Origin: Bryobacterales bacterium
GTDB taxonomy: Bacteria; Acidobacteriota; Terriglobia; Bryobacterales; UBA6623
Direction: 5' to 3'
Length of the DNA: 64,000 bases
Assembly: GCA_965247515.1 (NCBI GenBank)
Contig: OZ252029.1
Location: forward strand, 6,543,391 to 6,607,390
In this document: one piece after another, positions 6,118-63,141 of the stretch
How the letters are laid out: every line of letters begins with the position of its first letter
Position numbering within the stretch: the stretch's first letter is position 1
Notes under the pieces: generated by a model
Databases searched by the model: none
What the model was told of the DNA's origin: nothing
Seen by the model: only the letters and a program-made list of their open reading frames with translations
Position numbers and translations under genes: made by a program

Positions 6118-6262
6118 GGGGTTGCAGGGGCGCGACATGTCGCGACCTTGTGCCGGGACCGCGACGAGAACATGGAGCCGTCGACGCCATTGCATCCGGG
6201 CATTCACCAAGGCCTCGCCGCGAGGGCGAGTTGAAGGGCGCGACATGTCGCGCCCCTACGCC
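6118..6262. repeat. Composite repeat B, copy 1: about 145 bp bounded by two CGCGACATGTCGCG-core palindromes
   Basis: Palindromes at 6131-6144 and 6236-6255 (GGGCGCGACATGTCGCGCCC). The interior GAGAACATGGAGCCGTCGACG...TTCACCAAGG...GTTGAAGGGCG matches 34148-34487. Confidence 0.7.
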
Positions 6263-6278: not shown

Positions 6279-8918
6279 CTAGCGTTGAATTTGCACCAGG
6301 CCCACCGCCTCGATCGTGCGCTCGCCAATGGTGAGTTTCACGGTCACCGCTCCGGTCTCGAGATCCGGGGGAAGCCGAATATTGATTTGGAGCAGCCCCA
6401 CCAACCCCGGCGTTAGCCCCACAAAAGCGATGTCGGCGGGGCGCCCATCGACCTCCACGCTGACGTCCAGGAGCGGCGAAGGGAGCGGCAACACCGATGG
6501 GGATGGGGCGCCGGTCAGGAGTGGTTGGTTCATCAGGCCCTGGCCGTTCGCGAACAAGACCACTAACTGACTCGGGCGCGCCCGGTTCGCGTTGCTGTTC
6601 ACGCTGCTGTCTTGATTCAGAACCGCTCCAAACAGCCCGGGGTCGGATTCCCTGACGGGCAGCTCAACCCGAGAGCTCACCTGACCGTCAAACTCCACCC
6701 GGATCTCGACAACCTGCGCGCCGGCGACCTCGAACGGAACTTGGCAGTTGATCTGATCGGACCTCACGAAAAACAGGGGCGCGGGGACGCCGTTGAAGAA
6801 CACCGTTACACCGGCGAACGTCGTTGGCAGCCGGCCGGTAGCGGGATCGAAACCGGGAGACACCCCGTCTCTAGGCCCGATTCTCACGCCGAAAATGGAC
6901 ACGATCTGCCCCGGAGCGACGCCGCCGCCCTCGAAGCTAGCCGCGTTGACGATGCCGCGGGAGCTAATCTGGGTTCTGGCCGCGGTGGGTTCCCACGATG
7001 CGCCGGCGTTGACGGTCTTCCAGACGCCGCCGGCGACAACCGAGGCGTAGACCACGCCCGAGCTCCGCGGGTCCGCGACCAGACGCTGAACCGTTCGCCC
7101 ATCTAGTCCGGTATTGGTCGAGTTCCAGGTGCGGCCATGGTCGTCGCTTCGCGCTACTCCAAAACTGGTCGCCGCATAGACTGCGCCGCTGCTCGGATCG
7201 ATTGCGAACGCCTGCGCGATGAAAGTATCGCTAGGAAAGCCGCCGTTGCTAATCACAACGTTTTCGCCGCGGTCTTCGGTCAGCAGAATGCCAAAGCCAG
7301 CCGAGCCGATGAAAACGCGGCGCCCATCGGTTGGATCAACCTCCAAGGCAAGAATCGCCGGCGCCGCGCCGCCCTGTTGAAAATCCTCGGCCTCGTTGTC
7401 GCTCGCCAAGAATAGCCATGAACCGAACGACTCCGCCGCAACGTAGATGTTTCTCCCATTGCTCGGATCAATCGCGATTTGGGCCACGCTCTGCCCCGCA
7501 AGTACAAATCGGTCATCCAGAAAGGCGTCGAAGCTGTCGGCCCGATCGCGCGACCGGAACAGCCCCGTGGTCAACAGGAACCGGTTGCCCGGCGTGCCGA
7601 CCCAAACCGTTCGTCCGTCGCTAGGATGCACGGCGAGCGATTGGACGCCGAATCCCACCTGGACGGCGCCCCAATTTGCGCCGCCGTCAACGCTTCTCGA
7701 TAGAGCGCCGTCATTGGGATTGGTTGGACTCGTGGACCCAACATAGAGCACCTGAGGGTTCGTCGGATCGATCTCGAGGACTCGCGGACTGGTGTGCCGA
7801 AAGCCGTTGCCGGAGTCGAACCAGGAGTCTCCGCCGTCGAGCGACTTGAACATCCTCCCCCCATCCATTCCGGCGTAGAGAGTCGTTGGCGTCTGCGGAT
7901 CGATGGCGAGGCTCAACACGTTGGCGCCGTCGAGACCGGTCGAGCTGGCGACCCAGTTCGCCCCTTGATCGGAGGTCAAGTACACTCCCGAGCCCCCCGC
8001 GCCCATCAGGACTCGGGCGGGTTCGCCGGGCAAAGCTTGGAGTGAAAAAGGAAACGCCAGAGGAAGCCCATTGGAGATCTGGGCATACGTTGCGCCGCCA
8101 TCGCGACTGATCAGCATGCCAAGGTCTTCCGAAGCCGCGTAGAGCACCATACTGTCGGTCGCGTCGAACTCGATATCGAAGTACGAAAGCGCCCCAGCGC
8201 CGGCGACCTGCTCGAACGGTTGTCCCGCGGCGAGACGACGAATCATCCCCTGGCTCGTCGTGCAGTAAACGATGTTGGAGTCGTTGGGGTCGAAGCGGAT
8301 TTTCCGAAACGCCGCCGGCCCGGCGGCCGCCGCCTGCCAGATCAAGCCGCCGTCAACGCTTTCAAAAAATGCGCCGGCGGCGGAAGCGGCGTAGACCAGA
8401 TCGGAGTTATTCGGGTCGATCGCGAGGTCAAGATAGGCGCCGGCTATCAGGCCTGTCCCGGCGCGGATCCAGCCGTCCGCTGAGTTGTCGGAGAAAAAGA
8501 CGCCATCGGCGCGAGTGCCGGCGAATAAGACGTTCGGCCGTTGAGGGTCGTTGGCGACCGAGAGCACCTGCAGGTCGCCGATGCCGTCGCTGGTGAGCTC
8601 CCAGACGCCGCCGTCACGCGATCGGAAAACTCCGCCGCCGTCGAGCGCCGCGAAAAGCTGGGCCGGGCTGCCGCTCAGCGCCACGACGGGGAGTCTCGGC
8701 AGGCCGTCGCGCATCGCGGCCCAGGTGTCGCCTGAATCGTCGCTGCGAAACACGCCGGCGCTGGTCGCGGCGTAAACCAATCCAGGCTGGGCGTCGACTG
8801 CTAGGAAGTCGCTGACGGTCGCGCCAGGGGGGCCGGCCTGTCCGAATACGCTCGCGGCGGCCAAGAAAACAGCAAACCAAACAGTGAGCAACTTCGTTAG
8901 TACCTGTGGAGAGGGCAT
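6279..8918 (-). CDS. Large secreted BNR/sortilin-like beta-propeller repeat protein with a Solibacter-type C-terminal domain (TIGR03437-like)
   Basis: Many S-x-D-x-G-x-T-W type repeats (SDDSGDTWAAM, SRDGGATYAQI, SLDGGDSWFDS, SVDGGANWGAV, SDDHGRTWNST). C-terminus IVNAASFEGGGVAPGQIVSIFG...APLFFVRSDQINCQVPFEV...PGLVGLLQINIRLP. Start set at ATG 8918 (MPSPQVLTKLLTVWFAVFLAAASVFGQ). Confidence 0.8.
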   Translation of the reverse strand: MPSPQVLTKLLTVWFAVFLAAASVFGQAGPPGATVSDFLAVDAQPGLVYAATSAGVFRSDDSGDTWAAMRDGLPRLPVVALSGSPAQLFAALDGGGVFRSRDGGVWELTSDGIGDLQVLSVANDPQRPNVLFAGTRADGVFFSDNSADGWIRAGTGLIAGAYLDLAIDPNNSDLVYAASAAGAFFESVDGGLIWQAAAAGPAAFRKIRFDPNDSNIVYCTTSQGMIRRLAAGQPFEQVAGAGALSYFDIEFDATDSMVLYAASEDLGMLISRDGGATYAQISNGLPLAFPFSLQALPGEPARVLMGAGGSGVYLTSDQGANWVASSTGLDGANVLSLAIDPQTPTTLYAGMDGGRMFKSLDGGDSWFDSGNGFRHTSPRVLEIDPTNPQVLYVGSTSPTNPNDGALSRSVDGGANWGAVQVGFGVQSLAVHPSDGRTVWVGTPGNRFLLTTGLFRSRDRADSFDAFLDDRFVLAGQSVAQIAIDPSNGRNIYVAAESFGSWLFLASDNEAEDFQQGGAAPAILALEVDPTDGRRVFIGSAGFGILLTEDRGENVVISNGGFPSDTFIAQAFAIDPSSGAVYAATSFGVARSDDHGRTWNSTNTGLDGRTVQRLVADPRSSGVVYASVVAGGVWKTVNAGASWEPTAARTQISSRGIVNAASFEGGGVAPGQIVSIFGVRIGPRDGVSPGFDPATGRLPTTFAGVTVFFNGVPAPLFFVRSDQINCQVPFEVAGAQVVEIRVEFDGQVSSRVELPVRESDPGLFGAVLNQDSSVNSNANRARPSQLVVLFANGQGLMNQPLLTGAPSPSVLPLPSPLLDVSVEVDGRPADIAFVGLTPGLVGLLQINIRLPPDLETGAVTVKLTIGERTIEAVGLVQIQR

Positions 8919-9164
8919 TCTGACTGATTTACACCATGCGGTGGCCGAAAAGCACCGAGCTGGTTTAAAGCGACACATTCCAGCTAGACGTGGGAATCGC
9001 CGCAAAGGATGCACATTGGGAAAAACTTACACAGTCGGCGGCAGCCAGCGCGCCGGCTACGAAAAATTTACCTGGATAACCGTTTGACGGCGTTCGACGA
9101 AGGTAGAGGTACAGGCAAAGGGGAGTTTGGCGCAAGACGTGCAAACAGGACGGCCACGGACAAC

Positions 9165-15747: not shown

Positions 15748-18700
15748 GTGGTCCTTGAAGCGTTCGATCCTTTGATTGCGGAGTGGTTTGAGCGGAAGTT
15801 TGGGCGGCCGACCGAGCCCCAGGTCCAGGGTTGGCCGGAGATTCGGTCGGGGGGCGACGTGCTGATCTCGGCGCCGACCGGGTCGGGCAAGACGCTGGCG
15901 GCGTTTCTGATTTGTCTGGATGGGTTGGTGCGGGCGGCGCGCGAAGGGGCGCTGCCGGATGAGGTTCAGGCGGTTTACGTCTCGCCACTGAAGGCGCTGT
16001 CGAACGACATCCACAAGAACCTCGAACGGCCGTTGGCTGAGATTCGGGAGCTAGCCGCTGAGCGCGGGGTCGAGTTGGCGCCGATTCGGACAGCGGTGCG
16101 GACCGGTGATACCCCGGCGTATCAGCGCCAGAAGATGCTCACCAAACCGCCGCACATTTTGGTGACGACGCCGGAGTCGTTGTTCATCCTGCTGACGGCG
16201 AAGAAAAGCCGCGAGGCGCTCAAGACCGCGCGGACGTTGATCGTCGATGAGATCCACGCGGTGGCCGACGACAAGCGCGGATCGCACTTGGCCCTGTCGA
16301 TCGAGCGGCTCACCAATGTCGTCGGAAAGCTACAGCGGGTGGGACTGTCGGCGACGGTGAGCCCGCTCGAAGAAGTTGCGCGGTTTTTGAGTCCGCAAGC
16401 GAAGACGGTTCAAATCGGACATACGCGTCCGATGGAGTTGGGCGTCGAGGTTCCCGGCGATGAGCTGGGTGCGGTGACCACGCAAGGGCAATGGGACGAG
16501 ATTCGCGACCGGCTGGCGGAGTTGATCCTGCGACATCGCACGACGCTGGTTTTCGTGAACACCCGGCGGCTGGCCGAGCGCTTGACCCATGCCTTGGAAG
16601 ACAAGCTCCCCGAGGGTTCGGTGCTGGCCCACCACGGGAGTTTGTCGCGGAAGATCCGGCTCCAAGCCGAAGAGAAGCTCAAGTCGGGTGAGCTGCGGGC
16701 CGTGGTGGCGACCGCTTCGCTCGAGTTGGGGATCGATGTCGGGACGGTCGACCTGACGTGCCAGATTTCGACGCCGCGGTCGATCGCCGTCACGCTGCAG
16801 AGGATTGGGCGGTCGGGTCACTGGGTGGGGGCGCTGCCGCATGGGCGGATCTTCGCCACCTCGCGCGATGATCTCCTCGAGTGTGCGGCCTTGGTGAGGG
16901 CGATCCGCGGCGGGCGGCTCGACCGGCTGGAGATTCCCACGGCGCCGCTTGATGTCTTAGCTCAGCAGATTGTGGCCGAGCTGGCCTGCGAAGACCAGAC
17001 CGAGGACGAGTGCTTTGAGTGGGTGCGGCGGGCCTACCCGTATCGGGCGCTGCCGCGGGAGAAGTTCGACGAAATCATCACCATGCTCGGCGAAGGGATC
17101 GCTACAGCCCGGGGCCGTTCGGGAGCGTACTTGCACCATGACCGGGTGAACCGCCGGCTCAAGGGACGGCGGGGGGCGCGGTTGGCGGCGATAACCTCGG
17201 GCGGTGCGATTCCCGACTCGGCGCAATATCAGGTGATTGCCGAACCCCAGGGCGGAATGGTCGGCATGTTGGATGAGGACTTCGCGATTGAGTCCTCGAT
17301 CGGCGACATCTTCTTGCTGGGGGCGACATCGTGGCGGATTCGGCGGGTCGAGCCCGGGCGGGTGCGAGTGGAAGACGCGCATGGGGCGGCGCCGACGGTG
17401 CCCTTCTGGCTGGGCGAGGCGCCGGGCCGGACCTGGGAGCTTTCGCAAGAAGTGGGACGTTTGCGGCGGGACATTGACACGCTTTCAGATGAAGACGCGA
17501 TTGAAATGTTGACGTCGGAGTGCGCTTTGGACCGGCGCGGGGCCGAGCAGGCGGTGGAGTACGTGAGGGCGACGCGCAAGGCGCTGGGGGCGGTTCCGAC
17601 GGATACGACGGTTGTCGCCGAGCGGTTCTTCGACGAGTCGGGCGGCATGCAGTTGGTGTTGCATTCGCCGTTTGGCGCGCGGGTGAATCGGGCTTGGGGG
17701 CTTTCGCTCAGGAAGCGGTTTTGCCGGTCGTTCAACCTCGAGCTACAGGCGGCGGCGAATGACAACGGGGTCAATATTTCTCTGACCGAGCAGCACGCGT
17801 TTCCGTTGGAGTTGGTGTTTGAGTTCCTTTCGCCTGAGACGCTCGAACACACCTTGACGCAGGCGCTGCTCGATGCGCCGATGTTTACGACGCGCTGGCG
17901 TTGGAATGTCTCGCGGTCGCTGGCGGTGCCGCGGTTCAGTGGCGGGAGGAAGACGCCGCCGCCGATCCAGCGCATGCGGGCGGAAGACCTGCTGGCGTCG
18001 GTCTTCCCGGATCAGGCGGCTTGCGCGGAGAATCTGGCGGGCGAGATTCGGGTGCCGGATCATCCGCTGGTCGCCGAGACGGTCGACAACTGCCTGCGCG
18101 AGGCGATGGATTTGGACCGATTGACGGGCATCATCGGACAGATTCGGTCGGGGGAGATTGAGTCTGTCGCGGTGGATACGCCAGAACCTTCGCCGTTTTC
18201 GCACGAGTTGCTTAACGCGAATCCCTGGGCGTTTCTCGATGATGCGCCGTTGGAGGAGAGACGGGCGCGGGCGGTCCAGATGCGGCAGACGTTGTCCGAT
18301 GTCGACGCCGGGCTTGGGGCGTTGTCGGCGGAGGCGATTGCGCAGGTCGGCGAGGATATTTGGCCGGTTGCGCGGGATGAGGATGAGCTGCACGACGCGC
18401 TGTTGACGTTAACGGTGATGCCGCCGGCCCCGGAGTGGGAGGAGCTGTTTGGGGCTCTGGTCGAGACCCGGCGTGCCGCGCTTTTGGATAACGGGCTTTG
18501 GGTTGCGGCGGAGCGGTTGGCGCTGGCGCGGCGGGTCTACCCAGGCTGCAAGTGTTCGATCAAGGCGCTTGAACCGCCCACACCGTTGCCGGATTCACGG
18601 GACGCCTGCGTGGCGGAGGTGCTGCGGGGTTGGCTGGATTCGACGGGACCGGCGACCGCCGCGGCGATCGCTGACCGCCTCATGCTTCCGCCGCCGGCGG

Positions 18701-21255: not shown

Positions 21256-21348
21256 GCGGAACCCGCTCTTTTGCATACATACAGAATGTTACAGAATGTA
21301 TGTGAATTTTACATAGATTCTGTATGTATGCAAAAGAGCGGGTTCCGC
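21256..21348. repeat. Perfect 32-bp inverted repeat with a 29-nt AT-rich loop
   Basis: GCGGAACCCGCTCTTTTGCATACATACAGAAT (21256-21287) and its exact reverse complement (21317-21348). Loop is GTTACAGAATGTATGTGAATTTTACATAG. The outer 13 nt GCGGAACCCGCTC recur in other repeats. Confidence 0.9.
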
Positions 21349-21431
21349 AAAACTTAAGCTACAGTCGGCTGTTAAGTGAAGGCGGGGCCTTGTTTTTTGG
21401 CCTTCGCTTTCGGCTCCTTGGGCGGCGGCGG

Positions 21432-24846: not shown

Positions 24847-26235
24847 TAGGTAACACAATTCCCCGATCACATGGGTAACACATTGGCATCCTAGAACAAA
24901 AGGAGGACTTTTGTTTTGGGATGGAAGGAGACCCGTGTGCAAGACGAAAGATTGCGATTCGTTCAAGAGGTTCTAACCCGGGAGGATGCCATGGCCGCCG
25001 TCTGTCGGCGCTTCGGCGTCAGCCGCAAGACCGGCTACAAATGGCTCGATCGCTACGCCCAACAAGGCGTCGCCGGATTGGCCGATCAATCCAAAGCGCC
25101 CAAACGGCAAGCGCAAGCCTTTCCCGCCGAGATCGAGCGAGAGATCCTGGCCTTGCGGGCGCGCTATCCCACTTGGGGCAAAGACAAGCTCAAAGCGCGA
25201 CTCGAGCGCACCAACCCTGACATCAATTGGCCGGCGCACTCCACTATCGGGGCGCTGCTGAAACGCCACGGACTCACCCACCCCGGTAAGCGCCGGCGCC
25301 ACGCCACGCCTTCCAGTAAGCTCACCAGCGCCAAGGCGCCCAACCAAGTTTGGGCGATCGATTTCAAGGGTTGGTTCGACACCGGCGACGGCAAACGCTG
25401 CGATCCGCTGACGATTTCCGATACGGCGAGCCGCTATCTGTTGCGTTGTCAAAGGGTCGCGCGCAGCGACACGGCGCACGTGCGGCCGCTGATGGAAGCG
25501 ACTTTCCGGGAGTACGGCCTGCCCACGAGGATCCTTTCCGATAACGGTCCGCCGTTCGCCTCGACGGGCTTGGCGGGGCTTTCGCGGCTCAGCGTGTGGT
25601 GGATCCGGCTCGGGATTCAACTGCAGCGAATCGACCTCGGACACCCTGAGCAAAACGGGCGTCATGAGCGCATGCATCGGACGCTCAAGGCCGAGACGGC
25701 GACGCCGCCGGAGCGCAACTTGCGAGCGCAACAGCGGGCGTTCGATCGTTTTCGGCAGATCTACAACCAGGAGCGTCCGCACGAGTCGCTAGCGATGGCA
25801 ACGCCGGCGAGCGTGTATCAGCCGTCGTGGAGGCCGTATCCGGAGCGCTTGCCGGAGCTGGAGTATCCGGATCGGATGCTGCCGCGGCGAGTGCAGAGCA
25901 AGGGCGACATTGGGTTGCTGGGGCGTCAGTTGTTTCTCAGCGAGACCTTGGCGGGCGAGACGGTGGGCCTGGAAGAGCATGAGCACGGCTGGGCGGTCTG
26001 GTTTGGGCCGCTGGAGCTGGACTGGCTCGAGCGTAGCCTATTCGAGGGCCCGCGGCCGGGCAGGGGGGAGCACCGACTGCGGCGGAAACGCTCGGGGGGC
26101 GCCTCCTCCGCTCGCCCTACGGGCTCGCTCCCCCGGCGCCCCCCGAGCGTTTCCGGGAAGGATTTCGTGCAAAGAACCTTCTCTTGGTTCAACCCTTAAA
26201 CTGTTACCTATGTGGTTGGGGAAAAGTGTTACCTA
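24847..26235 (+). mobile_element. IS481-family insertion sequence (~1.39 kb) with ~38-bp imperfect terminal inverted repeats
   Basis: Left end TAGGTAACACAATTCCCCGATCACATGGGTAACACATT. Reverse complement of right end TAGGTAACACTTTTCCCCAACCACATAGGTAACAGTTT (about 31/38 matches). Each end carries two GGTAACA boxes. No clear target-site duplication was seen. Confidence 0.75.
24916..26199 (+). CDS. IS481-family DDE transposase (HTH + rve integrase core)
   Basis: RFGVSRKTGYKWLDRY (HTH), WAIDFKG (D), ILSDNGPPF (D), HPEQNGRHERMHRTLK (E). Confidence 0.85.
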   Translation: MGWKETRVQDERLRFVQEVLTREDAMAAVCRRFGVSRKTGYKWLDRYAQQGVAGLADQSKAPKRQAQAFPAEIEREILALRARYPTWGKDKLKARLERTNPDINWPAHSTIGALLKRHGLTHPGKRRRHATPSSKLTSAKAPNQVWAIDFKGWFDTGDGKRCDPLTISDTASRYLLRCQRVARSDTAHVRPLMEATFREYGLPTRILSDNGPPFASTGLAGLSRLSVWWIRLGIQLQRIDLGHPEQNGRHERMHRTLKAETATPPERNLRAQQRAFDRFRQIYNQERPHESLAMATPASVYQPSWRPYPERLPELEYPDRMLPRRVQSKGDIGLLGRQLFLSETLAGETVGLEEHEHGWAVWFGPLELDWLERSLFEGPRPGRGEHRLRRKRSGGASSARPTGSLPRRPPSVSGKDFVQRTFSWFNP

Positions 26236-30134: not shown

Positions 30135-32030
30135 GGGGCCGTGAAGAAAACCTATTGTCGCGTCGGCGCGCGGGAGCGCCAAGCGCACGCCAAGCTCAGC
30201 GCTGCCGAACGCCGCCCCTGCCGAAACCGCAACTTCTGCGCCTCGACTCCTGATTGACCGCCTGAGCGGCCCGGAAACGGTCGTTTCGGGCCGTTTCCCG
30301 GCCCTTTTCGCCCCCCCCACCGCCGCTACGCCGCCGCTTGCGCCGCCAGCCCGCACTCGGGCCCACGACGCCAGACCAGCCGGATCCAAGCCGCAATGTT
30401 GTACGCCAAAACCCCCCACAAAAGCTCCGATCGCGCCTTCCGCAGCCCTCGTACTCGAAACTTGCGCACCCCCAATCGCTCTTTCAACCAGGCGTTCGGA
30501 AACTCCGCCGTCTCGGACCGCTTGCGATACGCCGCCCGCCCACGCTCGCTCTCCATCCAGCGCCGATGTTTCGCCATCACCGCGTTCTCTTCGCTGCGGC
30601 TCAACGTTCGATGACCGCTCTTGGGGCAGCACTTGTGCCGCTGTGCGCATTCGCGACAATCAGATGCTTTTGCCTGATACTGCCGATATTTGCGCTTCCG
30701 CTTCAGCGACGATCGCTGATACGTCAAGGTCCGCTGGGCCGGACACAGAAACGTGTCCGTCGCCTCGTCGTAGATGAAAAACTTCGGCGCGTAGCGCGGC
30801 CCAATTCCCGCCGCCTTCAACGCCGCCTTCGAGCCCTTGTCCGGCGCCGGCGCCGGCGTCGCGTATTCGATTTCAGCGGCTGCCAGCGCCTCGATGTTGG
30901 CCTGGTTGGCGTAGCCCCCGTCCGCTAACACTTGCTTCGGGGTTCGCTCGAAGCGCCCTTCCACATCGTCCAGCGTCGGGGTCAGCTGGCCCGCATCGGA
31001 GGCGTTGTTGGTCAACTCCACGCCGACCACGATCTTCTCTTTGGCGTCGGTCGCCAGCTGCGCGTTGTAGCCGAGTCCCCAACCGCCGTTGGATTCGTGT
31101 TGCGGGCGCGCTTCCGGCTCGCTCTCGCTCACCCGCGCCTGGCGTCGTTGCTCTTCGTCGCGCTTGCCCGCTTCGACCTTGGGCAGTTCCTCCAGCGCCT
31201 GCTCCATCCGCTCGACTCGCTCCCGCAAGGTCCGCTTACGCGCCGCCTGACGCCGCCGATTCGAACCTTCGTCGTCGGCTTCTTCCGAGAGTTGACGCAC
31301 CGCTTCGCGCGCTTGTTCGAGATGCCGCTCGAGCGTCGGACGCCTGCGTTGCGACCCGCCCGAGGCTTGCGCCCGGATCCGCGTGCCGTCGACGGCCACC
31401 TGCTCGAGATCCACCAGCCCCTCTTGACTCAGCAGCGCCAATACCTGTGTCAACAAGTTCTCGAGAGCTTTTGAGTGGAATACCCGAAAATCCGAAAGAG
31501 TGTGATGATTGACGACCGCCATGCCGCACAACCACTCCAACTCCGGCCGATAGCGGCTTTGACGCGCGATCTCACGCGCCGAGCTCATCCTTTCCGAATA
31601 CGCCCAGATCCAGATCGCGACCAGCAACCGCGGATCCCATGCCGGCCGCCCGGCGGACTCCTTGCGGGTTTCCAGATGAGCAGCGAAGCCGGACAGGTCG
31701 AGCATGCCGCTCAGCTCCCAGACGGCGCGCACCAGATGGTCGGCCGGCACGAGCCGTTCGACGTCGATCGCGGCATAGGTGAATTGGTCGCGATTGGGCT
31801 GTCGCAGCTGCAGTTGGTCAACGGGCACGGCTTGGCGCGGCTTGGCGGGGCGTTGCTCGAGCTCGACTAAGACCTGTTGTTCGCCCATATAATAAGGGCG
31901 TTGGACGCCGCCGCCAAGTTATCCGAACATTCGTTTGCCCTCATGTTTTATCCCATTTTGATCCACTCGCGCCATTCCGAACCGCCCCAGGGGAGCTTCG
32001 GCGGCCACGACGGGTTTATTTCACAGCCCC
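30135..32030 (-). mobile_element. IS1182-family insertion sequence (~1.9 kb)
   Basis: Terminal inverted repeats GGGGCCGTGAAGAAAACC (30135-30152) and GGGTTTATTTCACAGCCCC (32012-32030) enclose a single transposase gene. It splits a repeat that is intact at 50440-50632. Confidence 0.8.
30326..31888 (-). CDS. IS1182-family DDE transposase
   Basis: 520 aa. ...VPADHLVRAVWELSGMLDLS...GRPAWDPRLLVAIWIWAY...VAVDGTRIRA...VLADGGYAN...CRECAQRHKCC...ETAEFPNAWLKERLGVRKFRVRGL are layout and motifs typical of IS1182/IS5-like transposases. Confidence 0.85.
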   Translation of the reverse strand: MGEQQVLVELEQRPAKPRQAVPVDQLQLRQPNRDQFTYAAIDVERLVPADHLVRAVWELSGMLDLSGFAAHLETRKESAGRPAWDPRLLVAIWIWAYSERMSSAREIARQSRYRPELEWLCGMAVVNHHTLSDFRVFHSKALENLLTQVLALLSQEGLVDLEQVAVDGTRIRAQASGGSQRRRPTLERHLEQAREAVRQLSEEADDEGSNRRRQAARKRTLRERVERMEQALEELPKVEAGKRDEEQRRQARVSESEPEARPQHESNGGWGLGYNAQLATDAKEKIVVGVELTNNASDAGQLTPTLDDVEGRFERTPKQVLADGGYANQANIEALAAAEIEYATPAPAPDKGSKAALKAAGIGPRYAPKFFIYDEATDTFLCPAQRTLTYQRSSLKRKRKYRQYQAKASDCRECAQRHKCCPKSGHRTLSRSEENAVMAKHRRWMESERGRAAYRKRSETAEFPNAWLKERLGVRKFRVRGLRKARSELLWGVLAYNIAAWIRLVWRRGPECGLAAQAAA

Positions 32031-33525: not shown

Positions 33526-34011
33526 GTGGCCCACCCGCGCAGATTCGTTCCCGCCTTGGTCATTTGCGTGATCGCCGCGGCCATCCTCTATGCCGGCTGG
33601 GCCACGCTGCGGGCGCCGGCGGATCTCTCTTGTAGCGTCTGTGGGAGGCCGGTTCACCTTGCCTCCCGTGTTGATGGCGTCGAGAACGGGAAGACCTTGA
33701 CGTTCTGTTGCGCCGCCTGCGCTTTGAGAAAGCAAGATCGGGAGAGTCTTCGTGTTACTCGCGTGTTCGACTACGAGTCCGGGACGGCGCTCGAGCCGGA
33801 GGCCGCGACTGCCGTGGTAGGCAGCAACGTCAATCTGTGCATGCGCGAGCATGTGCTGATGGACGCGCACAAAGAGGCAAGCGAGCTGCACTTTGACCGA
33901 TGCGCCCCCAGCGTTCTCACCTTTGCGAGCAGGGACGCCGCCGAGCGATTCCGCGACACGCAGGGGGGCGTCGTGGAGCGATTCACCGACTTGGAAGCCA
34001 CCTTGAAGTAG
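33526..34011 (+). CDS. Membrane-anchored putative metal-binding protein (TRASH/YHS-like Cys motif + NosL-like C-terminal part)
   Basis: N-terminal TM helix. CSVCGRPV...(about 22 aa)...FCCAACAL fits the C-x2-C...C-x3-C TRASH pattern. The C-terminal ...VLTFASRDAAERFRDTQGGVVERFTDL resembles NosL-type proteins. The call is tentative. Confidence 0.4.
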   Translation: MAHPRRFVPALVICVIAAAILYAGWATLRAPADLSCSVCGRPVHLASRVDGVENGKTLTFCCAACALRKQDRESLRVTRVFDYESGTALEPEAATAVVGSNVNLCMREHVLMDAHKEASELHFDRCAPSVLTFASRDAAERFRDTQGGVVERFTDLEATLK

Positions 34012-34147: not shown

Positions 34148-34487
34148 TCGCAGGGGCGCGACATGTCGCGCCCTTATGCTAATACTCGTTACTTAAGAGC
34201 CGGCGGTTGTTGAAGTTTGCGGAACCCGCTCCCTAGCGGTCGCGGCTCTGACTTCGCGAGTCAAACGTCAACCGAAGGGCGTCAGAGCCGCGACCGCTAG
34301 GGAGCGGGTTCCGCGCCTTCCCGACATACCCAGCTACACCTCAACCGACGCTTAAGTAACGAGTATTAGCCCTTATGCTGGTGGCCGAGATGAGAACATG
34401 GAGCCGTCGACGTGCCTGCATTTGGGTTTCACCAAGGTTTTGCCGAAAGGGCAGGTTGAAGGGCGCGACATGTCGCGCCCTTGCGCC
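34148..34487. repeat. Composite repeat B, copy 2, carrying a nested 188-bp insertion
   Basis: Bounded by GGGCGCGACATGTCGCGCCC at 34154-34173 and 34461-34480. After removing 34181-34368 and one direct-repeat copy, it aligns along its length with 6118-6262. Confidence 0.7.
34181..34368. mobile_element. 188-bp MITE-like palindromic element flanked by an 11-bp direct repeat
   Basis: Direct repeats GCCCTTATGCT at 34170-34180 and 34369-34379. Outer inverted repeats AATACTCGTTACTTAAG / CTTAAGTAACGAGTATT. Inner perfect 34-bp inverted repeat GCGGAACCCGCTCCCTAGCGGTCGCGGCTCTGAC (34219-34252 / 34281-34314). Confidence 0.7.
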
Positions 34488-34578
34488 GGCTAGCCTCTGC
34501 TTGGGTATCTGACGATAGGTCAGCCTATTTCTGGCGCACTATACTACGGCCTAAGGTCTCGTCGGCGGTCGATCTCGT

Positions 34579-34636
34579 AGAGGCGGAGCTTCAGACCACG
34601 ATAGAATAGAGGCGGAGCTTCAGACCACGATAGAAT
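34579..34636. repeat. Exact tandem duplication of a 29-bp unit across a gene's 3' end
   Basis: AGAGGCGGAGCTTCAGACCACGATAGAAT occurs at 34579-34607 and again at 34608-34636. Confidence 0.9.
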
Positions 34637-35274
34637 TCTGCGTCCAACGGCTGTTTCAAGGCGAACTTGTAGACGCGAGGCTTCCGAAACGCCCCCGGGT
34701 TCCCTTCGTAGGCATGCACCTCGAGGCGATAGGGGTCAGACGACCAGACTGAGTGGATATCGCGGTCGAGGATCCATTCGCGAGAGCGTTCCTCCGCCTC
34801 GCTGGAGTAGACGATTCGCTCGGGAGCGAAATACAGCGTTCCCTGGGAACCGCCGAGGGTCGTGATGTGCTTGGCGGGAAGTTCCTGCTGCACATTGGCG
34901 GGCTCCACTACCACTCGGTCGGTTGCGGGTTTGCCGATCCGGGCGGTTACCTGCTCGAAGAGTGCGTCGAAGAGCTCGCCAGAGGTGATCTCGAAGTCGT
35001 AGCCGCGGTCGCGGCCGAGCTTCCAGGCGACGTCTTCGTAGCTGAGCAGTCGGAACTCCTTCCGGCTGACCCGGTCGAAGAACTGGATGTCGCGGTAGGC
35101 CCAGCTGACGGTCTCGGCTTTCTTTCCCGACGGCTGGAAGGAGATTCCGGTGTCCCCGAATTCAACCGAGCCCTTGCGGCCGAACCAGAGGGGCTTGTCG
35201 ATTTCCACTTCAAAGACTTGCGCCGCGCCAACGGCGGCGAGAAGGTGTGCTAGAAGCAAGATGTAACGTGTCAT
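34591..35274 (-). CDS. Periplasmic protein of unknown function, translationally coupled to cusA (two PH/GRAM-like halves suspected)
   Basis: ATG 35274 overlaps the cusA stop (ATGA). Signal peptide MTRYILLLAHLLAAVGAAQ. Two similar halves: GSVEFGDTGISFQPSGKKAETVSWAYRDIQFF... and GSQGTLYFAPERIVYSSEAEERSREWILDRDIHSV... Confidence 0.6.
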   Translation of the reverse strand: MTRYILLLAHLLAAVGAAQVFEVEIDKPLWFGRKGSVEFGDTGISFQPSGKKAETVSWAYRDIQFFDRVSRKEFRLLSYEDVAWKLGRDRGYDFEITSGELFDALFEQVTARIGKPATDRVVVEPANVQQELPAKHITTLGGSQGTLYFAPERIVYSSEAEERSREWILDRDIHSVWSSDPYRLEVHAYEGNPGAFRKPRVYKFALKQPLDAEFYRGLKLRLYSIVV

Positions 35275-38200
35275 TGTGTCCTCACATGCGGCAGGCCGCG
35301 AGCTCTCCAGAGGTAGTAAACAATCGGGTAGACAACCAAGACAACGATGCCGGAGGTGACGACCCCGCCGACAAGCGGAGTCGCAACCCGCTTCATGACG
35401 TCCGCCCCCGTGCCCGTGCTCCACATGATCGGCAGAAGCCCGATCACGTCGGTCGCGATGGTCATTAGAATCGGCCGGACCCGTTTCACCGAACCGTCCT
35501 TGATGGCTTCGACGAGAGCGCCGCGGTCGCTGAGCAGGCCACGCTTTCGGTAGTCGTTATATGAAATGTTCAAGTAGAGCAGCAGAACGATGGCGGTCTC
35601 GGCGTAGAGTCCGGCCAGCGCGATCATGCCGACCCAGACGGCGATGCTGAGGTTGTAGTCGAGAACGTAGAGCAGCCAGATCGACCCGGTTAGGGCGAAC
35701 GGCACGCCCAGCAGCACGAAGAGCGTTTCGGCGATGGACTTGGTGTTCACGTAAATGATGACGAAAATCAGCAGGAGCGTGAGTGGGACGACGTACATCA
35801 GGCGTTGCTGAGCGCGCTGCATGTATTCGTACTGTCCGCTCCAGGCGATGGTGTATCCCGTGGGGACCGTGATTTGTTCGGCGACCGCACGCTGGGCGGC
35901 CTCGACATAGCTGCCGAGATCAATGTTGCGGATGTCGACGTAGACCCAGGCGTTGGGCTTCGCGCTCTCGCTCTTGATGCTAGGGGGGCCGACGACGTAC
36001 TGGATGTTGGCCAGTCGCCCCAGAGGGATCTGAGGACCGGCTGGGGTGGGCACGAGAACAGAGCGTAGGGACGGCAAGTCGTCCCGTAGCTCTCGGCTGT
36101 AACGCAGGTTCACGGGATAGCGCTCGAGGCCCTCGACCGTGGTCGTGATGTTCATTCCCCCAATGGCGGTCTGGATCACCTGCTGCACGTCGCGAACGGT
36201 CAGGCCGTAGCGGGCGATTGCAGTGCGGTCGATCTTGAAGTCGAGGTAGTTGCCGCCCATCACGCGCTCGGCGTAGACGCTCAGCGTGCCCGGGACATCG
36301 CGGATGACGCCTTCAATCTCCTTGCCGAGGCGCTCTAGCTCGGGCAGGTCGGGACCAGCGATCTTGATTCCGACCGGAGTCTTGATACCGGTCGAGAGCA
36401 TGTCGATACGGGTCTTGATGGGCATCGTCCAAGCGTTGGTCAACCCGGGGACTTGGATGGCCGCGTTCATCTCGTCAGTAAGCTTTTCCGGGGTCATGCC
36501 CGGCCGCCATTCGCTCTGGGGCTTGAGCGTGATCGTGGTCTCGATCATCGAAAGCGGCGCCGGGTCGGTCGCCGTCTCGGCGCGGCCGATCTTGCCGAAG
36601 ACGTTTTCGACTTCAGGAAAAGTCTTGATGATCCTGTCGGTCTGTTGCAGGATCTCTCGCGCCTTAGTGATCGAGATACCAGGCAACGTGGTCGGCATGT
36701 AAAGCAAGTCGCCTTCCCACAGGGGCGGCATGAACTCGGAACCAAGCCGTGAAAACGGCGCGAAGGTGACCGCCAGAGCGAGCAGAGCGAGCAGCAAGAC
36801 CGGGAACTTGAAGCGGAGCGCGAAGGTGACAACAGGCTGGTAGAGAAAGATGAGCAGCCGGCTGATCGGGTTCCGGTTCTCGGGTAGAATTCGGCCCCGC
36901 ACCCAATAGCCCACAAGGACGGGGACCAGCGTGACGGAAAGCAACGCCGCGGCGGCCATCGCATAGGTCTTGGTGAAGGCAAGCGGCTTGAAGAGCCTTC
37001 CCTCTTGGGCCTCCAGGGTGAACACCGGCATGAATGAAACCGTGATCACCAGCAGGGAGAAGAACAACGAAGGGCCGACTTCTCGGGACGAGGCGGCGAT
37101 GGTCTCCCAGTGGGGCTTGCTGCCGCGGTCGCGCGCGAGATGCTTGTGGGCGTTCTCGACCATCACGATACCGGCGTCGACCATCGTGCCGATCGCCACC
37201 GCAATGCCGCCCAGCGACATGATGTTGACATTGAGGCCCTGGAAATAGATGACGATGAAGGCCATCAGTATCCCGACGGGCAACGTGATGATGGCGACGA
37301 GCCCGCTTCGCACATGAAATAGGAAGACCAAGCAGACCGCGCCAACGATGAGGAATTGCTGCGTCAGGCTCGTTTGCAGACTGTCAACGGCGCGTTCGAT
37401 CAGTGCGGTGCGGTCGTAGGCGACTTCGATTTCGACCCCTTCCGGGAGCCCGGCTTTCACCTGCTCGAGCTTGGCCTTGACGTCACGGATGACCTGAAGC
37501 GTATCCGCGCCGTAGCGAACGACGACGATGCCGCCGACAGTCTCACCTTCGCCGTTCCACTCCGCTAGACCGCGGCGCATTTCGGGCCCCACACTCACTC
37601 GCGCCACGTCTTGGAGCAGGACGGGCGTGCCGGTCTCGTTGACTCCCAGGGCGATCTTGCGAATGTCATCAAGCGATTCGATATAGCCGAGCCCTCGAAT
37701 CATGAACTCCTTCTCGGCGACTTCTAGCAAGCGGCCGCCTACGTCGCTATTGCTGTTCTGAACCGCGGTGCGAATCTTCGAGATCGAAATGCGGTGCGCG
37801 CGCAGGCGGTTGGGGTCGACGGTGATCTGGTACTGGCGAACAAAGCCGCCGACGCTGGCCACTTCCGCGACCCCTGGAACGCTCGTCAGCTCGTACTTGA
37901 GAAACCAATCCTGGATCGAACGGAGCTCCGAGAGGTCATGCCGGTCCGACTTCAAGGCATACATGAATGCCCAGCCGACTCCGGTGGCGTCGGGCCCGAG
38001 GGTGGGAGAGACGCCGGGTGGCAGCTTCCCAGACACATAGTTCAAGTACTCAAGCACCCGGCTGCGGGCCCAGTACATGTCTGTACCGTCCTCGAAGATG
38101 ATGTAGACAAACGAGAAGCCGAAGAACGAATAGCCGCGAACGACCTTGGCGAACGGCACGGAAAGCATCTGCGTTGTCAGGGGATACGTGACCTGGTCTT

Positions 38201-45494: not shown

Positions 45495-47097
45495 TGGAGT
45501 GAACCCCAAGCGTGAGACAGTCGAAATCGGGACAGGTTACGATTCACCGCAAAACGCTTGCCTTCTTCGCTGTATCGTCGCACGCTGGTCCTAGCCGGGG
45601 AAGCGGAAGCGGGCTCTGCTGGAGAGCAACCCGCCAAGGAATACCCGGCCGCAAACTCATCAAGACGATGAGCGCCGGGGGCGGCCGCCAAGGTCGCTCC
45701 CGGCTTCTCCAACGCCGGCGATGTCTCCCTGCCCGCCCAGGGCCCATCGGATTGATAGATTTGCCTATGCCTCTCAAAACTCATACTTCGGATTCCTCGC
45801 TGCTGTTGCCGCCGGCCGCGCCAGCGCTTCAAACTCCGCCGGCGGACGATATCCCAACGCCGAATGCAGCCGGCGTTGGTTGTAGATCTCATCAATGAAC
45901 TCGCCGATCGATGCGCGCGCCTCGTCAAGCGTGCGATAACGCTGCAACCAAACCTCCTCCGCCTTCAACGTCTTCATGAAACTCTCCGCCCGCGCGTTGT
46001 CGTAGGGGTTGCCGCGGCGGCTCATCGAGATGATCGCGCCGTGCTGCTCCAGCAGCTCGACATAGGCGCTCGAAGCGTACTGTACGCCTTGGTCGGAATG
46101 ATGCATCCACCCCGCGGCAGGGCGTCTGAGCTCGAGCGCATCGCGCAACGCCCCTACAGCCAGCTCAGCTTTGAGCGTCGTCCCCAGCCGCCAGCCGACC
46201 ACGCGTCGCGAGTAGGCGTCCAACACCACGGCGAGGTAGACGAACGCCTCGCGCAAGCGAATGTAGGTGATATCGGATTGCCACAACTGATCGACGCCGT
46301 CCACATTCAGGTGCGCCGCTAGATTCGGATAAACAGGTAAGAAGTGGTTCGAATCCGTTGTTAGCACGAAGCGCCGCTTGAGTACCGCCAGCAAGTTGTC
46401 CTTACGCATCATCCGCAGGACCTTTTTGTGATTGACGAGGAAGCCTTGGCGGCGCAGCTCGGCCGTCACGCGGCGGTAGCCGCAACGACGATTCTCGAGC
46501 GAAATCCGCTGCATGCGGTCACGCAATTCCATGTCGCACTCGGCGGGCGACGACACGGCGAGCCGGCGATAGAACCCGGCGCGATTCACGCGTCCGAGCT
46601 CGCAGGCGTGTTCGACGCTGAGCGAGCCTTTGGCGCTGATCTGCTCGACGATGGAGTAGATCCGCTCGCGCCACCGGCGTCGTTGGTCGGGGCTGCGAGG
46701 TTCAAGGCGCGAAAGGCTTGTCCGAAAAAATCGAGCTCTGCGGCTTGTTTGCCGAGCAGTCGTTCGAGCTCTGCGATGCGTTCGTCGCGCGGATCGCGAG
46801 GGATCTTGGGCGGCGCCGAGCGGCCGGGTTTCGGCCGGCCTCGCCGCCGGCTCAAGCCGTTGACGCCTTCCTGGCGATAGGCGTCCCGCCAGCGGTACAG
46901 CAGGCTGCGCTTGACGTCCAACTCGCGGCTTAGCGCTGTGCCGCTCTGGCCGGCTAGGAGCCGCCTGGCGGCGGCTTCCTTGAACTCCACCGTGAACTCC
47001 CGCGGCTTGCGCGGCTTGAGACTTTCCATCCTGGACTCCTTTCCATTCGCTGAAATTCGTCCCGAATTTCAATGTCTCATTTTTAGGGTTCACTCCA
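45495..47097 (-). mobile_element. IS3-family insertion sequence, copy A (1603 bp)
   Basis: Termini TGGAGTGAACCC... / ...GGGTTCACTCCA (TG...CA). orfA/orfB with a T_TTT_TTC slippery site. Near-identical to 60447-62037. The 3-bp flanks differ (CCG vs CCA). Confidence 0.9.
45774..47029 (-). CDS. IS3-family transposase OrfAB (programmed -1 frameshift; orfA 46586-47029, orfB 45774-~46735)
   Basis: orfA: MESLKPRKPREFTVEFKEAAARRLL...LYRWRDAY...ELERLLGKQAAELDFF. orfB: ...WQSDITYI (D)...HHSDQGVQY (D)...GNPYDNARAESF (E). GATTTTTTCGG lies at the frame junction (46725-46730 on the + strand). Confidence 0.85.
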
Positions 47098-60446: not shown

Positions 60447-62037
60447 TGGAGTGAACCCCAAGCGTGAGACAGTCGAAATCGGGACAGGTTACGATTCACC
60501 GCAAAACGCTTGCCTTCTTCGCTGTATCGTCGCACGCTGGTCCTAGCCGGGGAAGCGGAAACGGGCTCTGCTGGAGAGCAACCCGCCAAGGAATACCCGG
60601 CCGCAAACTCATCAAGACGATGAGCGCCGGGGGCGGCCGCCAAGGTCGCTCCCGGCTTCTCCAACGCCGGCGATGTCTCCCTGCCCGCCCAGGGCCCATC
60701 GGATTGATAGATTTGCCTATGCCTCTCAAAACTCATACTTCGGATTCCTCGCTGCTGTTGCCGCCGGCCGCGCCAGCGCTTCAAACTCCGCCGGCGGACG
60801 ATATCCCAACGCCGAATGCAGCCGGCGTTGGTTGTAGATCTCATCAATGAACTCGCCGATCGATGCGCGCGCCTCGTCAAGCGTGCGATAACGCTGCAAC
60901 CAAACCTCCTCCGCCTTCAACGTCTTCATGAAACTCTCCGCCCGCGCGTTGTCGTAGGGGTTGCCGCGGCGGCTCATCGAGATGATCGCGCCGTGCTGCT
61001 CCAGCAGCTCGACATAGGCGCTCGAAGCGTACTGTACGCCTTGGTCGGAATGATGCATCCACCCCGCGGCAGGGCGTCTGAGCTCGAGCGCATCGCGCAA
61101 CGCCCCTACAGCCAGCTCAGCTTTGAGCGTCGTCCCCAGCCGCCAGCCGACCACGCGTCGCGAGTAGGCGTCCAACACCACGGCGAGGTAGACGAACGCC
61201 TCGCGCAAGCGAATGTAGGTGATATCGGATTGCCACAACTGATCGACGCCGTCCACATTCAGGTGCGCCGCTAGATTCGGATAAACAGGTAAGAAGTGGT
61301 TCGAATCCGTTGTTAGCACGAAGCGCCGCTTGAGTACCGCCAGCAAGTTGTCCTTACGCATCATCCGCAGGACCTTTTTGTGATTGACGAGGAAGCCTTG
61401 GCGGCGCAGCTCGGCCGTCACGCGGCGGTAGCCGCAACGACGATTCTCGAGCGAAATCCGCTGCATGCGGTCACGCAATTCCATGTCGCACTCGGCGGGC
61501 GACGACACGGCGAGCCGGCGATAGAACCCGGCGCGATTCACGCGTCCGAGCTCGCAGGCGTGTTCGACGCTGAGCGAGCCTTTGGCGCTGATCTGCTCGA
61601 CGATGGAGTAGATCCGCTCGCGCCACCGGCGTCGTTGGTCGGGGCTGCGAGGTTCAAGGCGCGAAAGGCTTGTCCGAAAAAATCGAGCTCTGCGGCTTGT
61701 TTGCCGAGCAGTCGTTCGAGCTCTGCGATGCGTTCGTCGCGCGGATCGCGAGGGATCTTGGGCGGCGCCGAGCGGCCGGGTTTCGGCCGGCCTCGCCGCC
61801 GGCTCAAGCCGTTGACGCCTTCCTGGCGATAGGCGTCCCGCCAGCGGTACAGCAGGCTGCGCTTGACGTCCAACTCGCGGCTTAGCGCTGTGCCGCTCTG
61901 GCCGGCTAGGAGCCGCCTGGCGGCGGCTTCCTTGAACTCCCGCGGCTTGCGCGGCTTGAGACTTTCCATCCTGGACTCCTTTCCATTCGCTGAAATTCGT
62001 CCCAAATTTCAATGTCTCATTTTTAGGGTTCACTCCA
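60447..62037 (-). mobile_element. IS3-family insertion sequence, copy B (1591 bp) with a 3-bp target-site duplication ATT
   Basis: Same termini as copy A. ATT at 60444-60446 and at 62038-62040. It differs from copy A by a 12-bp indel in orfA and a few substitutions. Confidence 0.9.
60726..61969 (-). CDS. IS3-family transposase OrfAB (programmed -1 frameshift)
   Basis: orfA MESLKPRKPREFKEAAARRLL... lacks the TVEF of copy A. The orfB translation is identical to copy A in the ORF track. Confidence 0.85.
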
Positions 62038-62040
62038 ATT

Positions 62041-62228
62041 TGTCCCAGGTGAATCGCCGCCACAGTTAGGGCGCGCCTTTGAAACGCCTGCTTGGCGAGA
62101 TTCGCTTCCTCTCGAATCTTGCGAAATGCGGCATCTGAATCGGAACGCAGGAATCTCCAAACGGTAATGCAGCTCCCCGCAGCTCCAAACAGTCCCAAGA
62201 CGATTCCTAAGAAGCTCACGAAGTCCAT
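62041..62228 (-). pseudogene. 5' part of a small membrane-protein ORF interrupted by IS3 copy B
   Basis: MDFVSFLGIVLGLFGAAGSCITVWRFLRSDSDAAFRKIREEANLAKQAFQRRALTVAAIHLGQ then reads into the IS end. Removing the IS and one ATT keeps an open frame to 60176, but the distal coding frame is ambiguous. Confidence 0.35.
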
Positions 62229-63101: not shown

Positions 63102-63141
63102 GCGGAACCCGCTCCCTTTCGGTCGCGGCTCTGACGCCGCG
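63102..63141. repeat. Solo half of the GCGGAACCCGCTCCCT..CGGTCGCGGCTCTGAC repeat
   Basis: GCGGAACCCGCTCCCTTTCGGTCGCGGCTCTGACGCCGCG matches one arm of the 34-bp inverted repeat at 34219-34252, with no partner arm nearby. Confidence 0.6.

Follow-up and report, generated by a model that had tools for sequence, protein, structure and literature searches.

A small element with IS4-type ends nested in an intergenic repeat of a Bryobacterales acidobacterium: a probable type II MITE

An intergenic repeat of a Bryobacterales acidobacterium, located in the 64-kb stretch of DNA analyzed here (hereafter "the window"), is interrupted by a short non-coding insert which is, with high probability, a non-autonomous type II MITE of 189 bp bounded by terminal inverted repeats of the IS4 subgroup (IS4 family) and moved in trans by a transposase of this type. 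The assignment to the IS4 subgroup is read from the ends of the element, which are identical to those of insertion sequences found in other genomes of the same order, whereas its core, foreign to these insertion sequences, is one copy of a palindromic repeat dispersed in the lineage. The mechanism implied is not new, and the element, however tidy, is an unexceptional representative of a class already known; the new information consists in its assignment to a family and in the account of a family of MITEs having a hairpin core.

Structure of the insert and of its insertion site

The sequence-only reading of the window had described a non-coding MITE nested in another repeat and flanked by a target-site duplication, and the repeats, the duplication and a colinear paralog of the host repeat all agree with this description. 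The same 11-mer, GCCCTTATGCT, is found on both sides of the insert (34170-34180 and 34369-34379, 11/11 identical) and the similarity between the two flanks ends there, on both sides. The outer inverted repeats, also claimed beforehand, are a perfect pair of the 17-mer AATACTCGTTACTTAAG (34181-34197 on the plus strand and 34351-34367 on the minus strand), these being the only two sites within three mismatches of this sequence in the 64-kb window, against 0.02 expected by chance. The inner inverted repeat is perfect over 34 bp, with 28 nt between the arms (Table 1), and the modules GCGGAACCCGCTC and CGGTCGCGGCTC, said to recur in other repeats, are indeed matched 7 and 10 times in the window as opposed to the 0.46 and 2.3 matches expected. 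The lack of coding capacity is borne out as well, no ORF longer than 41 aa touching the insert, and the insert folded as single-stranded DNA reaches -75.4 kcal/mol (z = -12.8). The generic definition of a MITE (50-1000 bp, terminal inverted repeats, target-site duplication and no transposase; PMC4596501) thus describes the insert well, with its 189 bp, its 18/18 repeats, its perfect duplication and its non-coding nature.

Table 1. Features of the insert, of its host repeat and of related sequences in the window
Feature	Position	Strand	Remarks
Host repeat carrying the MITE	34151-34482	.	bounded by GGGCGCGACATGTCGCGCCC palindromes at 34154-34173 and 34461-34480
Left target-site duplication GCCCTTATGC	34170-34179	.	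11 bp if T34180 is counted as target; overlaps the final 4 bp of the host palindrome
Left terminal inverted repeat TAATACTCGTTACTTAAG	34180-34197	+	28% G+C; fits the IS4-subgroup consensus -AATR--------WTW
Left subterminal spacer AGCCGGCGGTTGTTGAAGTTT	34198-34218	+	diverged form AGCCGGCTGTAG... in L105, L108 and window 21349-21371
Left arm of the inner 34-bp inverted repeat	34219-34252	+	half of the lineage-specific ~96-bp palindromic repeat
Inner hairpin loop TTCGCGAGTCAAACGTCAACCGAAGGGC	34253-34280	+	resembles loops of solo hairpin-repeat copies
Right arm of the inner 34-bp inverted repeat	34281-34314	-	
Right subterminal spacer	34315-34350	+	without similarity to any transposase gene
Right terminal inverted repeat, reverse complement of TAATACTCGTTACTTAAG	34351-34368	-	
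Right target-site duplication GCCCTTATGC	34369-34378	.	followed by T at 34379
Uninterrupted paralog of the host repeat (empty site)	6126-6257	.	82% identical; equivalent target GACCTTGTGC at 6144-6153
Decayed MITE family member	21256-21382	.	GCGGAACCCGCTC hairpin stems, right subterminal CTACAGTCGGCTG, truncated repeat TTAAGTGAAGG; left end lost
Solo half-copy of the hairpin-repeat arm GCGGAACCCGCTCCCTTTCGGTCGCGGCTCTGAC	63102-63135	+	

The boundaries of the insert deserve a comment. An extra A at its right end (34368) pairs with the T at 34180, so that two descriptions fit the sequence equally well, namely an element of 188 bp with an 11-bp duplication, as originally proposed, or one of 189 bp whose repeats measure 18 bp and whose duplication measures 10 bp. 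The latter, in which the perfect repeats are TAATACTCGTTACTTAAG and the duplication is GCCCTTATGC, is the likelier by homology, since the ends of the IS4 subgroup have a variable first nucleotide followed by AAT and since clean 10-bp duplications accompany the relatives of the element (see below); possibly, however, the boundary is that of the 188-bp form, with an 11-bp duplication GCCCTTATGC(T).

The uninterrupted copy of the host repeat had been indicated as the empty site with which the interrupted one should be compared. Upon in silico removal of the insert and of one copy of the direct repeat, 34151-34482 becomes colinear with 6126-6257, 110 of the 134 aligned columns being identical (82%). 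No longer duplication of host sequence, of which the 11-mer could be a part, is seen, so that the nested insertion is genuine and not the product of a longer tandem duplication. The nesting consists of three layers, a palindromic repeat lying within a MITE that lies within a palindrome-bounded repeat, and the latter is located between two convergent genes (33526-34011 on the plus strand and 34591-35292 on the minus strand). A local 29-bp tandem duplication is present near the insert in the window strain. An IS1182-like transposase with DUF772 and DDE_Tnp_1_6 domains is encoded nearby (30326-31888) and was considered as the mobilizer, but it belongs to another family and the window contains no matching ends. 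The earlier statement that no element of the window has ends matching those of the insert holds for intact elements, whereas a decayed member of the same family was recognized at 21256-21382.

The terminal repeats point to the IS4 subgroup

According to De Palmenaer, Siguier & Mahillon (2008, PMC2266710), members of the IS4 subgroup measure 1400-1650 bp, are flanked by direct repeats of 10-13 bp and have ends of the type -AATR--------WTW, in which the first nucleotide is relaxed. TAATACTCGTTACTTAAG agrees with this consensus at 7/7 specified positions at both ends of the insert and the perfect duplication, be it of 10 or 11 bp, falls within the range typical of the subgroup; the classical IS4 of E. 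coli K-12, having ends TAATGCCAGTCAGTTAAG and TAATGCCGATCAGTTAAG and a 12-bp duplication, has repeats of the same 18-bp length, 11/18 positions of which are identical to the window repeat. On the other hand, the 189-bp element lacks the DDE transposase with YREK motif and the 1400-1650 bp length of the subgroup, shows no similarity to IS4-type transposases by tblastn and has nothing in common with the insertion sequences beyond the 18-bp ends; having no transposase ORF, it is not an insertion sequence but only a non-autonomous user of IS4-type ends.

Far more specific are the data obtained by scanning one genome per prokaryotic species (596 Gb) for the exact 17-mer, which yielded 70 loci, the window's own genome not being among the matches. 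Since about 70 matches to a 17-mer are expected in 596 Gb, some 15 singleton matches in other phyla are probably due to chance. Five of the 70 loci belong to Bryobacterales (Acidobacteriota) MAGs and in these the 17-mer constitutes the end of a repeated element of ~1.0-1.45 kb, the identity between the ends of the window element and those of the Bryobacterales insertion sequences ranging from 17/17 to 18/18. The best-preserved copy (L062, 473-1924; ~1454 bp) has ends CAATACTCGTGACTTAAG and AAATACTCGTTACTTAAG and contains a 401-aa ORF whose product is matched by the Pfam profiles Nterm_IS4 (7e-22) and DDE_Tnp_1 (1e-18) and by the NCBIfam model transpos_IS4_1 (NF033592; 230 bits with a cutoff of 115), is 28% identical to InsG of E. 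coli IS4 (E = 3e-35) and carries YHERWEIENALDELK, which can be read as the Y-2-R-3-E-6-K motif. An IS4-type transposase is likewise encoded by three decayed full-length elements sharing these ends (L015, L019 and L063), all of them, like L062, in other Bryobacterales genomes only; the right ends of L015 and L063 are identical to the window repeat at 18/18 positions.

The ends identify the putative transposase of the insert as one of the IS4 family, IS4 subgroup. The sequence-only reading had considered the mobilizing transposase unknown. The identical ends now allow its family to be stated, whereas an autonomous copy was not found in ~0.5 Mb of sequence from the window lineage.

Exact copies of the 17-bp end are also present on ~50 MITE copies in Lentisphaeria genomes. 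One Lentisphaeria locus (L012) was considered as a 1.27-kb element between inverted 17-mers and was discarded, as it contains no transposase ORF and consists of two separate MITEs. A scan of JGI metagenomes with the 18-mer returned four unrelated matches and no further copy, and nothing was found in scans of viral contigs.

Length of the duplication and target preference of the relatives

More than 8000 homologues of the L062 transposase are present in the database at E < 1e-30, and for the best 120 the identity amounts to 69-97% over 400-459 aa, in most cases 401-406. For one of them (P0019, 76% identical to the L062 transposase) ten genomic copies were compared. The corresponding elements have ends CAATACTCTTCACTTTAG...GAGTATTG, in all ten cases with a terminal C...G outside the AATACTC core, and three of the ten (L085, L086 and L087) are flanked by clean 10-bp duplications (AGGCTAGCTG, GGTCTAGCTG and GGCCTAGCGT), the third of these copies ruling out an 11-bp reading. 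Nearly all 10-bp flanks of these elements conform to nGGYTAGnnn and many of them lie within conserved "target arms", a pattern in line with the "spectacular apparent insertion specificity" that members of the IS4 subgroup are reported to have (PMC2266710). The target of the window element, GCCCTTATGC, does not fit the nGGYTAGnnn preference, in which respect it differs from the targets of its IS4 relatives.

From the established behavior of IS4-family DDE transposases we infer that the mobilization took place in trans. In the mechanism proposed, an IS4-subgroup transposase consisting of an Nterm_IS4 DNA-binding domain and a DDE/YREK catalytic domain would bind both 18-bp ends and bring them into synapsis; the element, excised or copied, would then be joined to cuts staggered by 10 bp (possibly 11), i.e., about one helical turn, in the tail of the host palindrome and the repair of the gaps would generate the GCCCTTATGC(T) duplication.

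The hairpin core and its family

Sampling of the lineage beyond the 64-kb window relied on the abundant IS1182-like transposases, through which ~430 kb were fetched, so that the sequence available amounts to ~0.5 Mb, or ~5% of the genome. In this material the hairpin that forms the core of the insert is also found alone, without terminal repeats (L103 8282-8377; L115 1587-1680 and 4118-4215; L114 13705-13798); the loops are similar and the central triplet of the arms co-varies from copy to copy (TAG/CTA, TTG/CAA, TGG/CCA). As judged from these comparisons, the core is not the remnant of a transposase but one copy of an independent, lineage-specific palindromic repeat of ~96 bp. Since this core is foreign to insertion sequences and only the 18-bp ends are in common, the insert belongs to the MITEs termed "type II" in PMC4596501.

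The search for further copies suggested by the sequence-only reading was partly fruitful: the ~0.5 Mb of lineage sequence contain four family relatives, mostly decayed and with variant ends, but no second copy with the exact ends. One of them is the decayed member of the window (Table 1). In another (L105, ~17853-18007) the inner arms are identical to the window 34-mer and the ends are decayed, and in a third, also decayed (L108, 3665 to ~3800), the left end CAATACTCGTTACTCAAC is followed by AGCCGGCTGTAG, the equivalent sequence of the window element being AGCCGGCGGTTG. The fourth (L110, 19086-19198; L118 represents this locus as well) measures 113 bp, has P0019-type ends (CAATACTCTTCACTTAAG...TAAGTGAAGAGTATTG) and a GCGGAACCCGCTCCC hairpin core, the same as in the window element, and its flanks, CCGCTAGCCC and CCGCTATCCC, match at 9 of 10 positions; these near-intact ends and matching flanks indicate that IS4-type activity occurred more than once in the lineage.

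As to the origin of the family, it could be imagined that IS4-subgroup ends came to flank a palindromic repeat of the host, thereby founding a lineage-specific MITE family, and that the exact 17-bp end common to insertion sequences and MITEs of Acidobacteriota and to MITEs of Lentisphaeria reflects the recent spread of a single IS4 clade between phyla, with the MITEs outliving their transposase; we regard this scenario as rather unlikely. Were it true, an IS4-type transposase would disseminate a hairpin module of the host, possibly a terminator or an mRNA-stability element, otherwise found solo after stop codons.

Host genome and search for the cognate transposase

The window has a G+C content of 62% and its proteins map to a contig of 9,113,711 bp. 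The product of one window ORF (6279-9014, minus strand) matches TIGR03437, the "Solibacter C-terminal domain", with 190 bits (cutoff 29), and that of another matches TIGR04528 (acido_non_PQQ) with 526 bits, below the cutoff of 650. The host, a Solibacter-like Bryobacterales acidobacterium whose genome measures ~9.1 Mb, belongs to the same order as the bearers of the matching insertion sequences.

A tblastn search of the window and of the ~430 kb of additional lineage sequence detected no gene for an IS4-type transposase, and in the homologue clusters of the L062 transposase no member from the 9.11-Mb contig is present among the best 120 listed or in the ten that were expanded. An insertion sequence of the L062 type is present, at 34x coverage, in sample ERZ25071132, in which the window lineage is covered 29-34x. 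The hypothesis that both reside in the same genome was rejected. In fact, four repeat motifs of the lineage, occurring at 0.27 per kb and present in 20/20 lineage loci, are all absent from ~50 kb surrounding the L062-type copies (Poisson P ~1e-5 for the 42 kb of L098 and L121), the flanks of these copies have 59-60% G+C compared to the 62% of the lineage, and no insertion sequences are common to both; these three properties indicate that the owner of the L062-type element is a different, co-occurring Bryobacterales species.

Seven metagenomic contigs from six assemblies span the insertion site and all seven carry the insert at the identical position, without any polymorphic empty site among them; the insertion is fixed in the sampled population. 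In one of the seven (L074) a stretch of 85 bp, equivalent to the inner hairpin, is missing while the outer ends and the duplication are retained, a loss that looks like a palindrome deletion or is possibly due to assembly collapse.

Comparison with known elements

The likeness to the IS4 subgroup concerns the 18-bp ends (nAATR...WTW/TTAAG) with their variable first nucleotide and the length of the direct repeat; furthermore, the Bryobacterales relatives with 17/17 identical ends encode transposases of the Nterm_IS4 plus DDE/YREK type and display the target-arm specificity known from this subgroup (PMC2266710). The difference lies in the size (189 bp vs. 1400-1650 bp), in the non-coding nature and in the fact that only the 18-bp ends are in common.

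Type II MITEs are elements having only the terminal repeats in common with an insertion sequence, such as Neisseria ATR with ISNme1 and P. gingivalis BrickBuilt with ISPg1/9 (PMC4596501). Like these, the window element is short and non-coding, has terminal repeats identical, or nearly so, to those of full-length insertion sequences and a core unrelated to a transposase, and takes part in nested insertions; the core carries a palindromic repeat where that of BrickBuilt carries a minisatellite. Whereas these examples are of the IS5 family and their duplications are short or irregular, the window element has IS4-subgroup ends and a duplication of 10-11 bp, and its parent insertion sequence was not found in the ~0.5 Mb of the same lineage.

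Closer as regards the family is MIC231/IS231 (IS4 family, IS231 subgroup) of the Bacillus cereus group, also non-autonomous, with IS4-family ends and a duplication of ~10-12 bp. MIC231 is mobilized in trans by its cognate transposase, a behavior that we infer for the window element; nevertheless, it belongs to another subgroup, has CAT... ends, is larger, carries passenger genes and occurs in Firmicutes rather than in Acidobacteriota. Finally, the core hairpin resembles REP/REPIN sequences, being a dispersed, lineage-specific intergenic palindrome that is also found solo and often just after stop codons. REP/REPINs, however, which are linked to a RAYT gene, have neither terminal inverted repeats nor a target duplication, whereas the window insert is delimited by both; the inserted unit is therefore not a REP/REPIN, a class to which the inner hairpin alone may belong.

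MITE-type derivatives of the IS4 subgroup are not mentioned in the IS4 survey (PMC2266710). A MITE whose transposase was considered unknown becomes assignable, as the ends alone place it in the IS4 subgroup, with the duplication of ~10 bp that is expected there. In addition, the three-layer nesting illustrates how repeat-rich intergenic regions build up in large acidobacterial genomes. On the practical side, annotation or masking of Bryobacterales genomes can now include both the MITEs and the hairpin family, and the 18-bp end is a handy probe.

Alternative explanations

An explanation to which we assign somewhat less than an even chance is that the element is an orphan fossil, i.e., that an IS4-type transposase once moved it, that the cognate enzyme is now gone and that what remains is fixed, immobile DNA kept at most for its hairpin. 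Its presence at the same position in all spanning contigs, the decay of most relatives (L105, L108 and the one at 21256-21382), the absence of an IS4-type transposase from the ~0.5 Mb of lineage sequence and that of a 9.11-Mb-contig member from the closest transposase clusters listed speak in favor of this possibility. Nevertheless, the terminal repeats (18/18), the duplication (10/10 or 11/11) and the inner repeat (34/34) are all perfect, which argues for a recent event or an ongoing constraint; moreover, L110 has near-intact ends with flanks matching at 9/10 positions, and the sequence sampled represents only ~5% of the genome. In any case, since loss of the enzyme concerns the present activity of the element and not its origin, it is compatible with the IS4 assignment.

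Two other explanations concern the nature of the insert itself. In one, the mobile unit is the inner ~96-bp palindrome, propagated in a REP/REPIN-like manner by a Y1/RAYT-type or other enzyme, while the outer repeats and the direct repeat are incidental. The solo hairpins in L103, L115 and L114, the co-variation of the arm triplets and the existence of Y1_Tnp genes in the lineage (e.g., in L116) are consistent with this view, which is nonetheless very improbable, because the break in the host repeat is located exactly at the outer repeats, the duplication flanks these repeats and not the hairpin, the outer repeats recur unchanged as the ends of IS4-type insertion sequences, and L074, which has no hairpin, keeps both outer ends and duplication. 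The local tandem duplication mentioned above could suggest that the insert is instead a product of local duplication or slippage, just as its very stable fold could suggest a structured RNA gene, such as a cis-regulatory hairpin of the mraW type. Indeed, Rfam mraW (RF01746) matches 34207-34322 on the minus strand over the full model with 47.6 bits; this is below the curated gathering threshold of 50 bits, and unrelated microRNA-precursor models score comparably (41, 40 and 29 bits), so that the match was rejected as a generic similarity among long G+C-rich hairpins. Furthermore, no Rfam match reaches the gathering level in the window, the direct repeat is only 10-11 bp long with different flanks, and the terminal repeats equal the ends of insertion sequences; both possibilities appear exceedingly improbable.

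Within the preferred reading of the insert as a MITE mobilized by an IS4-subgroup transposase, it may be conjectured that the stable hairpin acts on the two convergent transcripts. A pattern scan detected neither promoter-like nor terminator-like sites inside the insert, the single terminator-like match of the scan being located outside it, at 34509-34523.

Target sites and distribution of the MITE ends

The sequence tcgcgtgctttggccgtcaggcggtgagaWaagcagg is a conserved flank that recurs beside the IS4-type elements and MITEs of Bryobacterales. Since this flank is inverted on the opposite side of the element and the 10-bp flanks conform to nGGYTAGnnn, these sequences suggest that insertion is site-specific, the target being the midpoint of a host repeat that is itself palindromic.

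Lentisphaeria/Oligosphaeraceae MAGs (JBMNFR01, JAPXLT01 and JAAZKR01, among loci L001-L069) contain ~50 MITE copies of 180-260 bp, whose left end is identical to the terminal 17-mer of the window MITE and whose right end is AATACTCTTAACTTAAC. At the sequence level, the end is thus exactly common to these MITEs and to the Acidobacteriota elements, across phyla. Nearly all the Lentisphaeria copies lie, in either orientation, inside genome-specific arrays of G-rich heptamers, (GGGGCGA)n or (GGGTGCA)n; no transposase was found near them in the fetched flanks.

Variants of the window MITE

The metagenome contig L074 carries the MITE copy of one strain from which 85 bp, i.e., the inner hairpin, are missing, the breakpoints being located 3' of GCGGAACCCGCT and 5' of CCTTCC; either a deletion of the palindrome or a collapse of the long-read assembly would account for this gap. 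A second, decayed member of the family, whose left end is gone, is present in the window; it retains an AT-rich loop between GCGGAACCCGCTC stems, the right subterminal sequence CTACAGTCGGCTG and the truncated end TTAAGTGAAGG.

Coordinates of the features (L103, L106, L110, L112, L114 and L115, loci of the window's lineage)
Feature	Locus	Positions
MITE copy lacking 85 bp	L074	6700-6800 (= window 34231-34315)
Second family member	window	21256-21382
Lentisphaeria MITE (example)	L017	6643-6899
Lentisphaeria MITE (example)	L025	5415-5663
Conserved flank, left side	L085, L088, L092, L093	
Conserved flank, right side	L062, L084, L092, L110	
Palindrome GGGCGCGACATGTCGCGCCC	window	6128-6147, 6236-6255, 34154-34173, 34461-34480
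Palindrome GGGCGCGACATGTCGCGCCC, single	L106	12175
Palindrome GGGCGCGACATGTCGCGCCC, single	L112	16143
Palindrome GGGCGCGACATGTCGCGCCC, single	L114	4206
~96-bp repeat, solo	L103	8282-8377
~96-bp repeat, solo	L115	1587-1680
~96-bp repeat, solo	L115	4118-4215
~96-bp repeat, solo	L114	13705-13798
~96-bp repeat, half copy	window	63102-63135
29-bp tandem duplication	window	34578-34635
Other transposase genes	window	24916-26199, 30326-31888, 45774-47093, 60726-62228

Other repeats and transposase genes

GGGCGCGACATGTCGCGCCC is a perfect 20-bp palindrome, two copies of which, together with a conserved GAGAACATGGAGCCGTCGACG core, make up a ~130-bp unit; the two examples of this unit that were observed both lie in the window. 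Another palindromic repeat, of ~96 bp and lineage-specific, has the layout GCGGAACCCGCTCCC-NNN-CGGTCGCGGCTCTGACGCC...GGCGTCAGAGCCGCGACCG-NNN'-GGGAGCGGGTTCCGC, its central triplet undergoing compensating changes between the arms (TAG/CTA, TTG/CAA, TGG/CCA). The solo copies are intergenic, often directly 3' of stop codons, and the motifs were not found in the co-occurring Bryobacterales genome.

Beside the MITE locus, a perfect 29-bp tandem duplication, found in the window strain only and absent from six other contigs, causes a frameshift at the C-terminus of a 233-aa minus-strand gene, whose product changes from ...LRLYEIDRRRDLRP* to ...LRLYSIVV*.

The window holds at least four other transposase genes: one is IS481-like, one IS1182/IS5-like (domains DUF772 and DDE_Tnp_1_6) and the remaining two are IS3-like. 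The lineage carries very many copies of the IS1182-like element (a 147-member cluster), frequently two of them within 10 kb.
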